Shown here in pieces: positions 20,996 to 24,826 of a DNA stretch of 49,233 nt (position 1 is the first letter of the stretch; the number at the start of each line of letters is the position of its first letter). The DNA is from Arenimonas sp. (lineage in GTDB: Bacteria; Pseudomonadota; Gammaproteobacteria; Xanthomonadales; Xanthomonadaceae). A model generated the notes under the pieces. The model saw only the letters and a list, made by a program, of their open reading frames with translations, did no database searches and had not been told where the DNA came from. The DNA lies in the NCBI GenBank assembly GCA_043717775.1, contig JAYSXB010000211.1, positions 1 to 49,233 of the forward strand. Reading direction: 5' to 3'. The translations under genes and the position numbers were made by a program.

Positions 20996-23900
20996 TTACG
21001 GGTTATCAGGATCAATGACGGGATTGATGCTTCCATGCACCACGATGTTTTTCTCCACGTCCGGGTCTTCGAGCTTGTCCATCAGAATGCGTTTGGCATA
21101 ACGCAGATTTTCCAGCTTCAATCTGTTGATGTCCTCCGCTACTTTGTTAACATCCATCTCGCGATGACGCAGTTTGAAGTCTTCGAGCAGAGTATGGCCT
21201 GACGGCAGCATTTCGATAAACAGTGATCCGGTTGGGATAATGATTTCATCGCCATTGCGAAGCGGGTCGGCCAGTAATTTTGTCAGCCATTTTTGCAATA
21301 TCGGTTTCACGCGTTCGTACTCGGCCGGATCTTCCTGGTGTAGACAGCAGATATAGTGCGAGAACTCTTCCAGATTGACGTTGCTTAATTGATCCGGGTC
21401 CATCGCGCCGAACGCCGAATCGATATAAGGCGCGGCCATAAATTCAGTCAGCGCGTTGTGTTGCTTCATCGGGAAAATCATGTAATTGCCCTTGAAGCCA
21501 AGTACGGTATCAAGATCGGCAACTTCCACTAGCGGCTTGAAGGTGACGGCGGGTGAGCCATCAGCATTACGTTTGACTTTACCCTGTAGCCAAGCCTTAT
21601 GCTTTGTATTTCCGGGTGCACGGAAAGCTTCGAATACATCGTCACTGGCCGCGCTGACTTCGACCATGCAGGTACGTGTTGCTTCAAATTGCGGCACCTG
21701 CACTTTATACAGACGCATATAACGCTGATCCGGCGGCTCCATGCTCCAGATCGCCTGCATGTAATAGAAAATATTTTCCTTGATGTGAACAATCAGATTT
21801 TGCACTCGGGTCAGGTTGTCCAGATGCTCGCGCATCATTTCGATATAATCGCTGGTAAGCCGATGCAATGAATTGGTTTCTTGTTGCACCCCGGCCGCCA
21901 TTCTTTCGGCCTTTTCAAGCGCATATCGATGCGCGTCGCTGGCCGCCAGTTCCCTTGCTTTTGCCGCTTCGGGGTCAGGCTGATTTTGATTGCCGCCGCC
22001 CCATGGCGACCAACTGGCACCTAACCAGTCACTGACATCGGTTAGGAAGCCGTCCGAATTCTCCCGATGTTGTTCGTCGATTCTGGCGGTGACTGATTTT
22101 TCAAGTGCGATATAGCGGTTATTGGCTTCGTTTTTTAATTGAACAAGTTCAATTTTCAAGGTCTCAACCAGATGCCGTTGTTGGATCAGATTTTTCCGCA
22201 GCTCTCTCAAGGCATAGTCATTGCCAACGTTTTTACTCGAAATATATTGCAGTGCGTATTTGAAACTGTCGTCCAGAATAAAACGGTTCAAAATCCAGGC
22301 ATTGGCCATGACCCAGGCTTCAGTAATCTGCTCGGGCGACGGTACTTGCTGTGCCACCATCACCACTGGCATTACTCTATAAATTTGTTCCGATACCCGG
22401 AACCGACGTTGCAATTCATAAAATAGATAAGTGACCGAGAGCTCGTCATTGGGATTGACGATCGTTCCCGATTCATTGTATTCAGAACTATAGCTGGCAT
22501 CAGTTTCGACATCTAGGCTGCGTTCGTTACGATACTCTTGGGCCGCCTTGATGACTGCTTCGCGAAAATCCTTTTTTGTCTGTGCTGATTCTTTTTCGGC
22601 TTCTACACCGAAGGTGGTTTTCGCATCGCCTTTGTAAAGGCCGACGTTGAATTTACCCTCGGTGCTCAGCGTGAAATTGGTTTTGTCATGCGCTTTGTTG
22701 ATGATTTCGGCTTCGGCGCGGGTGGTGGAATCCTGCTCGTTCTTGAGGCTGCTGCTGTTCTTCTCCGCTTCTTTTCTTACCGTCTTGATGTTGGTGGAGG
22801 TCTTGATGGAATATTTTCTTTCCTCCTTCGGCGATAGCGGAATTGTCTTGACCAGCTTACCGGCTTGATAGCAGATCGGCTCCCATTGCTGGCGATAAGT
22901 ATTCATTAAACCGAAATTCACCGCGTGATGATCACGATCGGCGGCAAAAATAGTGAACTCGTATTTGCCCAGCAACCGGTCATGCAGATCTTTCAATATT
23001 TGATGGGCCGAATACGGTTTGTTCAAGCGAACGTTTTCGATCAAACGTTCACCCTGCTCGCGTTTGCGAAGCGTGCTTAAGGTGTATTTCGGCGCATTAT
23101 TATTGTTAGGTAAACCACCCAAGATACCCCCAATGAGACCCCCTGTATTTTGCACAGGGGCCGGAACACCAAGCTCATCGCGGATGATTGATTTTGCCAG
23201 TTGCTCGAGCTTATCCTGCTCGTCACCCGTCATGGCCGTATATTCCAGCAATGAAATATCAAAAATCATTGCTACATTGCTGGGAATTGTTGGCGTGGCA
23301 TTTTGCCAGGTGTTCAGAGTGCCGACACTGGCGAGAATCGGAATCAGATCCAGCGCTTTTATATTGCCGCCTCGTAAGCCGATGGTCTGCTGAATGCCAG
23401 GCCTGCCCGAACTTACCAGAATATTGTCGGCCTTCTGGCCCAGATCGACCAGAGTTGCATCCAGCAGTTGTGTCCAAACATGGTCGAAGGCAATTTGCAA
23501 AGAATGGAAATCGTAGAAAGCGGTAACGTCTGCGGGACTTTTACTGAGCGTAAATTTATCTACATTGTTTTGAACATCCGCCGTCGTCGGCCGACCCAAA
23601 GTGGTGTTGCTGGCATTGGTTTCGCTAGCGCCGAGTATTTTCTTCAGATATTTTGGAATATCGCTTAATTCCGTGCCGGTATCGGAAGTATCAACTGGAT
23701 TTCCGCTCGGTGGTGTTCCGCCGCCATGATCATGTTCGCCTCGTTCCGGCAGTACGTGTTCGACCGCACATTTTTCTTGACTGCTTTTTTCACGACAATA
23801 TTTGCTGATCGGATTATTGCTGACAAGTAATGCATCGTAGTTTTCTTCGTTTTCTTTCTTGAACAGCAATCGCTGAATATCCTTGTCTTCCACCACGAAA

Positions 23901-24826
23901 TACTCGATGCCATCGATAGTCGTACGAGAAAACGCAGCAGTGTCATCCACGGCATTGCCGTTTTCATCTTGGCCCTTGAATAAAATCAGGTTGATCGGAA
24001 TGCCTTTTCTGGCATTGACGCTAGTGCCCGGTGTGGTTGGTGGCGGCAGGGCCACAGTAAAGGTTTCCATCACCTGTAAACCGGCTGTTACCGAATCCAC
24101 CTGCATTTTCGGAATGGTGGTGTTCTTGTCCACAAAGAAGCCTTTGCCGACCAACGCTGTAGGGTCGGTCTTTATGATGCCTTCAAACGCGGCCCTGAAT
24201 TCCTTGCTGGCAATTTTCTCTTCATCGATTTGCTCGGTGTTATATTGAGTTATCGCCTGGCGCAGCTGTTTCTGGTCGCTTTTCTTGGTGATGTAACTGT
24301 CTATTTTCGCTTGTACCGCACTGACGATTTCGCCACTGGTGGGCACGAAGGCACCGGCTTTATTCAATTGCTCCAGCGGAATCTGGATCAGATAATTTTC
24401 TACCCGGCCAGCGTTCTGACGAATCTCGCCAGAATAATACAGCAGAGTTTCTCTGAATGATTTCGCGGCCTGTTCCGGCGCGAGCACCATCAAGAAAAGA
24501 TCGGGGCGCAGCTCTTCCTTGTTGCGAACGCGGAACTCGGAATCTTCATAACTGAAATTGAAACTTCCGTCCTGGCCCGTCAGTAAAGAGCCGATGCGGT
24601 CACCAAGGCCGCCAAGCGAATTCTTCGGTGTGACATTTAAGTTGGTCGCAGACCTTGCTGTAGAACCGCTGTTACCGGAAATGGCTTCGATCACCTCCTC
24701 AGTCCTGGTGTCGGGATCGATATCGTAGATGACAACCAGAAGATTCGGGCAACCTGCGCCGGTTTCCTTTACCACTATTTTTCCCTGGACAGTGTTCTGG
24801 GCAGTTCTAATGTTTGATGTGGCCAT
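20996..24826 (-). CDS. Large uncharacterised protein (~1276 aa) with N-terminal transthyretin-like domain, possible amphipathic beta-hairpin and long coiled coil
   Basis: Long uninterrupted ORF; start set to MATSNI (ATG 24826, AAGGA RBS). Apparent conserved blocks YRQQWEPICYQAGKLVKTIPLSPKEE, NPNDELSVTYLFYELQRRFRV and IPTGSLFIEMLP. The CDS is certain; the function is not. Confidence 0.75.
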   Translation of the reverse strand: MATSNIRTAQNTVQGKIVVKETGAGCPNLLVVIYDIDPDTRTEEVIEAISGNSGSTARSATNLNVTPKNSLGGLGDRIGSLLTGQDGSFNFSYEDSEFRVRNKEELRPDLFLMVLAPEQAAKSFRETLLYYSGEIRQNAGRVENYLIQIPLEQLNKAGAFVPTSGEIVSAVQAKIDSYITKKSDQKQLRQAITQYNTEQIDEEKIASKEFRAAFEGIIKTDPTALVGKGFFVDKNTTIPKMQVDSVTAGLQVMETFTVALPPPTTPGTSVNARKGIPINLILFKGQDENGNAVDDTAAFSRTTIDGIEYFVVEDKDIQRLLFKKENEENYDALLVSNNPISKYCREKSSQEKCAVEHVLPERGEHDHGGGTPPSGNPVDTSDTGTELSDIPKYLKKILGASETNASNTTLGRPTTADVQNNVDKFTLSKSPADVTAFYDFHSLQIAFDHVWTQLLDATLVDLGQKADNILVSSGRPGIQQTIGLRGGNIKALDLIPILASVGTLNTWQNATPTIPSNVAMIFDISLLEYTAMTGDEQDKLEQLAKSIIRDELGVPAPVQNTGGLIGGILGGLPNNNNAPKYTLSTLRKREQGERLIENVRLNKPYSAHQILKDLHDRLLGKYEFTIFAADRDHHAVNFGLMNTYRQQWEPICYQAGKLVKTIPLSPKEERKYSIKTSTNIKTVRKEAEKNSSSLKNEQDSTTRAEAEIINKAHDKTNFTLSTEGKFNVGLYKGDAKTTFGVEAEKESAQTKKDFREAVIKAAQEYRNERSLDVETDASYSSEYNESGTIVNPNDELSVTYLFYELQRRFRVSEQIYRVMPVVMVAQQVPSPEQITEAWVMANAWILNRFILDDSFKYALQYISSKNVGNDYALRELRKNLIQQRHLVETLKIELVQLKNEANNRYIALEKSVTARIDEQHRENSDGFLTDVSDWLGASWSPWGGGNQNQPDPEAAKARELAASDAHRYALEKAERMAAGVQQETNSLHRLTSDYIEMMREHLDNLTRVQNLIVHIKENIFYYMQAIWSMEPPDQRYMRLYKVQVPQFEATRTCMVEVSAASDDVFEAFRAPGNTKHKAWLQGKVKRNADGSPAVTFKPLVEVADLDTVLGFKGNYMIFPMKQHNALTEFMAAPYIDSAFGAMDPDQLSNVNLEEFSHYICCLHQEDPAEYERVKPILQKWLTKLLADPLRNGDEIIIPTGSLFIEMLPSGHTLLEDFKLRHREMDVNKVAEDINRLKLENLRYAKRILMDKLEDPDVEKNIVVHGSINPVIDPDNP

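Follow-up and report, generated by a model that had tools for sequence, protein, structure and literature searches.

A two-gene unit in an Arenimonas toxin island

The stretch analysed here (the window; positions 1 to 49,233 of contig JAYSXB010000211.1, 49,233 nt, from the Arenimonas sp. assembly GCA_043717775.1, a genome of 2.59 Mb that is 87% complete) carries an island that is bounded by queC/tRNA-Lys and a ferritin-like gene. The island contains an open reading frame (ORF) for a protein of 1276 aa, a second one of 817 aa and, divergently oriented, genes for a TcB-TcC fusion and a TcA. The 1276-aa ORF is real and runs on the minus strand from an ATG at 24826 to a stop at 20996; an in-frame TTG at 24946 would lengthen it by 40 aa, and the family consensus begins at the ATG. 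An earlier reading of the bare sequence (the original prediction) had proposed, by comparison with binary toxins, an oligomeric pore or translocon serving the downstream effector. Our data support such a role: it fits both a period-2 antiparallel β-ladder of conserved length, centred on an amphipathic tip, and a closely linked, hypervariable, toxin-like partner. The binary toxin stands as an analogy only, with no detectable homology to the PA/Ib/Vip1 family. We consider it probable that the protein forms the pore in a two-gene delivery system resembling binary toxins, through which the tip of the partner would be passed into a target cell.

The 1276-aa protein has no sequence match in Pfam, NCBIfam or PDB. 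As had been predicted, there is no evident signal peptide: neither a hydrophobic N-terminal stretch nor a transmembrane helix is present (maximum 19-residue Kyte–Doolittle hydropathy, KD19, 1.12). The motifs named earlier all lie in their places, namely YRQQW...LSPKEE (residues 644-669; 22897-22820) and NPND...RFRV (residues 791-811; 22456-22394), and between them a stretch rich in Ser, Thr, Lys and Glu (47% of residues 668-790 vs 27% of the whole protein). Covariation suggests that a conserved PADxxAFYDF...W motif extends the core sheet by an edge strand (Table 1). The two long helices of the coiled-coil arm were recovered in the AlphaFold2 (AF2) model (residues 853-923 and 952-1017), whereas the Trp/Gly tip proposed to join them varies in sequence and length, with Trp in 160/354 and fewer than 15 residues in 18/354 sequences.

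A long covarying hairpin with an amphipathic tip

Which part of the protein might form a pore? Covariation analysis, which covered residues 410-1276, revealed one ladder only, a single unbroken antiparallel β-ladder with period 2 that pairs residues ~666-726 with 731-791. The alternating hairpin of the original prediction (TNF...EAE, residues 716-744; 22681-22595) is present and amphipathic, but the paired structure centred on it is far longer than the ~30 residues envisaged, with ~60 residues per strand. The length of the predicted stem is conserved in the family, at 118-137 residues, and is 150-177 residues in remote relatives. The ladder also runs through segments that AF2 models as helices, the monomer model of residues 666-791 being partly helical or disordered where covariation indicates strands. 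Together, ladder and AF2 helices bear the hallmark of a prepore-to-pore switch, in which the inserting segment is predicted to change from helix to strand.

Strict polar/hydrophobic alternation is limited to a tip of ~12 residues per strand with aromatic ends, and the stem shows a single hydrophobic belt. When the covariation register is used to assign the faces of residues 715-742, hydrophobicity is higher on the outer than on the inner face in 350/350 aligned sequences (mean Kyte–Doolittle value +1.18 vs -2.27), a count that is partly circular because the faces were chosen on the same family. A conserved Phe (F754, 94%) falls on the lumen face, as judged by register alone. Taken by itself, the β-pore step is, in our view, quite likely.

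A hypervariable partner gene

The partner encoded in the window consists of central hydrophobic helices, a low-complexity linker and a C-terminal domain whose D...ExK motif is invariant in 8/8 aligned relatives. By this motif alone, we take the tip to be a PD-(D/E)xK-like nuclease; no library confirms the assignment, and the partner has no match in Pfam or PDB.

From 98 loci, four were lost at the ORF filter, leaving 94 scored loci, of which 77 have 900 bp or more of downstream sequence. In 69 of these 77, the family gene is followed by a large co-oriented ORF, at a distance of ≤100 bp in 60 of the 69, as compared to 92/191 for other large ORFs and 16/40 on the upstream side. BLAST sorts the partners, 213-1006 aa in length, into 36 clusters, and tips have been exchanged between backbones. 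Toxin-type Pfam domains (E<0.01) were matched in five of 48 partners, three below cut-off, and comprise AHH, MafB19 deaminase, CdiA_C, ADP-ribosyltransferase (ART) and non-specific endonuclease; an OmpA domain occurs in one of the 48, and a PT-TG domain at loci L006, L103 and L104. No immunity gene follows the window partner. Eighteen of 42 partners are without a following ORF of at least 70 aa, and none of 23 following ORFs scanned belongs to a known immunity family, a scan that recognises known families and that unknown ones would escape.

The nuclease-like domain, C-terminal in the window partner, is N-terminal in the partners L029:5938-7908 and L027:4298-6925. The partner is broken into two ORFs in each of two close relatives whose family protein is 88-91% identical (L001:3654-5808 and L019:3676-5830). 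An insertion sequence-like ORF follows the split partner in L001, for which transfer or mis-binning is possible because the record is labelled Polyangiaceae.

Table 1. Features of the window and the basis of their assignment (HMM, hidden Markov model)
Feature	Position	Strand	Basis or remark
Predicted pore/translocon protein, B-like component, 1276 aa	20996..24826	-	ORF + family
N-terminal module, residues ~9-200, kept in family	24227..24802	-	HMM
PADxxAFYDF...W motif, residues 431-451, conserved	23474..23536	-	covariation
Core strand A, residues 636-664, antiparallel to core strand B	22835..22921	-	AF2 model + covariation (sum 1461)
Predicted stem hairpin, P666-N791, 126 residues	22454..22831	-	covariation + AF2 model
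Amphipathic tip, residues 716-741, predicted membrane-spanning hairpin	22604..22681	-	covariation + hydropathy
Core strand B, residues 797-825	22352..22438	-	AF2 model + covariation
Antiparallel coiled-coil arm, residues 853-1017	21776..22270	-	AF2 model + covariation
Variable amphipathic Trp/Gly tip of coiled-coil arm, residues 926-945	21992-22051	-	
Core strand C, residues 1193-1209, pairs with strand B; conserved C-terminal helix, residues 1212-1248	21083..21250	-	AF2 model + covariation
Partner gene, 817 aa from GTG (809 aa from ATG 20971)	18542..20995	-	GTG abuts stop of 1276-aa ORF
tRNA-Lys(TTT), left border of toxin island	18327..18402	+	
TcB-TcC fusion: SpvB, TcdB_mid, RHS core, C-terminal DUF2380/SitA6-like domain	25303..33243	+	divergent island neighbour
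TcA: ABC_toxin_N, neuraminidase-like, TcB-binding domains	33597..43733	+	island neighbour

A family spread thinly across bacteria and archaea

Among 7995 scored candidates, 525 are homologues of the 1276-aa protein, the best 120 being 53-91% identical over residues 420-1276. A 14-sequence profile retrieved 3057 representatives at E≤1e-3, 1579 at E≤1e-10 and 817 at E≤1e-30. Fourteen members scanned with Pfam are likewise without a match. Named carriers belong to Pseudomonadota, Myxococcota, Nitrospira, Bacteroidota and Acidobacteriota and include a cyanobacterium and a Methanomicrobiales archaeon; further members reside on Sinorhizobium and haloarchaeal plasmids. Within groups the gene is rare: it was found in 0/60 relatives searched, and a full-length member in 0/300 Bacteroidota and, besides the centre genome, 1/300 Myxococcota genomes.

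The same Arenimonas genome encodes a remote paralogue of 1288 aa (G000:C255:879-4745, minus strand; L101) with the same core and a glycine-zipper hairpin tip. Its group aligns with the family core (HHalign probability 99%, E 3.6e-18) and shows a symmetrical, weaker covariation ladder of its own. A minority of the group carries fused variable domains (OmpA, Hedgehog-like peptidase, DUF2272, DUF4056), 31/37 members being without a Pfam match at E≤0.001. A relative reduced to a minimal core of ~450 aa (L112:1015-3076) lies directly upstream of a gene for an AvrRpt2-like papain C70 protease, and further subgroups of the superfamily exist in Myxococcota.

By eye, the L101 gene is inserted between parC-like and asnB-like genes, and a His-Gly...Cys arrangement in the C-terminal domain of its product recalls caspase-like proteases. 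In a search of viral folds, an uncharacterised Yasminevirus protein (BFVD A0A5K0U6Q4) stands out (E 4e-7, with poor superposition) as a possible giant-virus relative. At L026:2905-4923 (minus strand), the N-terminal half of the family gene is inverted relative to its C-terminal half, reflecting either an inversion or a misassembly.

Proposed mechanism and alternatives

How would such a system operate? Both proteins would leave the producer without a signal peptide, a lysis-type route being our guess. The 1276-aa protein would oligomerise on the target, where residues ~666-791 would refold into one long β-hairpin per subunit and build a barrel of ~160 Å. Its amphipathic tip would cross one target membrane, and the polymorphic partner encoded next door would have its enzymatic tip passed into the target cell. 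As immunity genes are missing, this might be a non-kin target, e.g. a protist or fungus. The coiled-coil arm with its Trp/Gly tip may act as a membrane-contacting leg, which is the weakest step.

Several points weigh against this scheme, in which oligomer and activity are predicted. The main ones are that BLAST recognises no common docking domain among the partners, which a dedicated translocon might need, and that no release route is apparent, neither a signal peptide nor a linked export or lysis gene having been found. The loci include duplicates and relatives, a large co-oriented follower is lacking in 8/77, and most partners have no Pfam match; because only 5/48 matched a toxin-type domain, the label 'toxin' is attributed by extension to the majority, the window's partner included. 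Hydrophobic helices (KD19≥1.5) occur in 40/65 partners, so that these might cross membranes unaided. Covariation, moreover, is a mean-field estimate of modest depth, with 80% reweighting and a clade split as sole phylogenetic correction.

The missing docking domain, the hydrophobic helices and the loci without a partner would suit a scenario in which the pore itself is the weapon, or in which its lesion lets the co-released partner enter by its own means, with no threading through the barrel. We regard this as unlikely, since the linkage to enzymatic partners is tight and orientation-specific, some relatives carry fused cargo, and the long polar lumen resembles that of translocating pores as far as these are described. 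Alternatively, the protein might act in intracellular suicide or abortive infection, as a gasdermin-like pore inserted into the producer's membrane from inside, with the partner as sensor, activator or second effector. The lack of a signal peptide and of a consistent immunity gene, the patchy distribution, protease genes or domains beside some remote relatives, and restriction-modification, abortive infection (Abi) or helicase genes near 5/28 loci (a count without baseline) are in line with this idea. Yet the partners are built like exported toxins, with PT-TG, central hydrophobic helices and C-terminal tips, PADLOC matches neither gene, a stem of this length would be superfluous for the adjacent inner membrane, and the window neighbours are Tc toxin genes, with an N-terminal module in common; we would give suicide only a small chance.

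Could the barrel instead point outward? An export conduit, secreting the partner from the producer's cytoplasm through its own envelope, would account for two genes without signal peptides and for OmpA and peptidoglycan-enzyme-like domains in some partners and relatives, and the Gram-negative periplasm has a width of the same order as the predicted stem. The single hydrophobic belt and the different envelopes of archaeal members make it improbable. Still more doubtful, and indeed very improbable, is the idea that the protein serves the neighbouring Tc toxin as an accessory subunit: the divergent tcBC/tcA genes, the weakly common module and, at L011, a TcB fragment just before the family gene speak for it, but Tc genes adjoin the family gene in 1/94 scored loci and TcA was found in 4/15 carrier genomes, many of them incomplete. 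Finally, covariation reveals strand pairing, not insertion, and would equally fit a soluble β-tube or fibre without membrane role; the confinement of strict alternation to a short tip with aromatic ends leaves this hardly any probability.

The translocating β-pores known so far essentially form one family (PA/Ib/CDTb/Vip1) with a few fixed cargoes. If true, binary-toxin-like delivery by the 1276-aa protein would constitute an undescribed toxin-delivery system and a second, apparently unrelated and much longer translocating β-pore, one that counts hundreds of divergent members in free-living bacteria and archaea and whose cargo is exchangeable. Polymorphic toxin biology would gain a further route of delivery, and a set of orphan PT-TG and nuclease-tipped genes that have neither trafficking domains nor immunity would be explained; the system would also hint at conflicts in soils and sediments that have so far escaped study. 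Refolding from helix to strand could moreover be tested directly here, with a register that is predicted for each residue. More tentatively, and perhaps a little against the odds, the superfamily could represent an unrecognised class of free-standing injectors across bacteria and archaea: β-barrel needles unrelated to PA, aerolysin or MACPF that refold from helices, are long enough to get past a cell wall or surface coat and carry in exchangeable cargo of the nuclease, deaminase, ART or protease kind, neighbouring or fused.

Comparison with known toxin systems

In the 1276-aa protein, as in the B components of binary toxins (anthrax PA, iota Ib, CDTb, Vip1/Vpb), each subunit has a long stem with a single amphipathic, S/T-rich hairpin, here deduced from covariation rather than structure, and the turn motifs flanking the stem look similar by eye. 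An adjacent, separate enzymatic gene is likewise common to both, its enzymatic nature being presumed here for most partners. In contrast to binary toxin B, our protein has predicted helical prepore segments, a coiled-coil arm, no signal peptide and polymorphic cargo, and its family spans phyla rather than mainly Bacillota. The PA14 (PF07691), Ca-binding (PF03495), domain 2 and domain 3 Pfam families have no match in the protein or in 14 family members; PA14 and Ca-binding mark 100% or most of Ib homologues. Homology to the binary-toxin pore domain (PF17475) was not detected, with an HHalign probability of 0.44% (E 0.14) as compared to 0.11-5.1% for 15 block-shuffled decoys, the template being shallow (Neff 3.4), so that very remote homology could escape. 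The stem of 126 residues compares with 69 residues and 90 Å in the description of Ib in 10.1101/721969 and with 105 Å given for PA in PMC6194281; at its estimated ~160 Å, it is ~1.8 times as long as that of Ib.

Helix-to-strand refolding of the inserting region, predicted here, is also a feature of MACPF/CDC and gasdermin, and for MACPF/CDC is described under the concept of transmembrane hairpins (TMH) in PMC6194281. These proteins use two TMH hairpins per subunit, as opposed to one within our covariation range; a dedicated cargo gene further sets our system apart. No MACPF/CDC/gasdermin Pfam match and no aerolysin/ETX-MTX2 profile match was found in the 1276-aa protein and 14 members.

With a conserved delivery part and variable toxin tips, the system resembles polymorphic toxins (contact-dependent inhibition, Rhs, LXG/WXG, PT-TG), whose C-terminal tips likewise vary among nuclease, deaminase and ART; the partners here, too, contain PT-TG and hydrophobic pre-toxin helices. 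PT-TG proteins lacking trafficking domains have been assigned to the type VII secretion system (PMC13483458), and the available text of that survey makes no mention of the present family. Unlike polymorphic toxins, our system has no known trafficking domain, its conserved part is a separate pore gene, and immunity genes are not consistently present.

Tc neighbours and further observations

Tc toxins, which use an α-helical channel and an RHS cocoon and for which a lysis-type release has been reported, are likewise free-standing injectors with variable cargo and no signal peptide, although the family described here occurs mostly without them. Tc loci lack immunity genes and target eukaryotes (PMC7861908), and the release of Tc toxins is the subject of PMC10847046. 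We do not read the 1276-aa protein as a Tc toxin subunit: it contains no TcA, TcB or TcC domain, and its linkage to Tc is not obligate. The adjacent Tc genes are island neighbours, not obligate partners. The HMM of the N-terminal module weakly matches residues 131-202 of the window TcA (E 6.5e-4), the only other match among 8961 genome ORFs, and also the TcA of G071 (E 3e-9), with weak or no match in other fetched TcA regions; we read this likeness as a putative accessory module shared by co-located weapons.

At L011, from Lunatibacter, 19 bp separate the end of the truncated TcB (7247-9148, SpvB domain) from the family gene downstream. In the window, the sequence preceding tcA, together with the first codons of that gene, is duplicated in tandem (33288-33669; repeats of 73 nt and 95 nt at a spacing of ~197), and a remnant ORF of 42 aa persists at 33398-33526. 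The end of the TcB-TcC fusion (32990-33243) is a DUF2380/SitA6-like domain, a kind usually tied to interbacterial toxins, with no adjacent immunity gene. A cyanobacterial carrier genome has a TcA-like open frame of 5108 aa (L106:3037-18360). Elsewhere in the window, two tandem DUF3011 genes with Asn/Gly/Trp-rich linkers lie at 985-3091.
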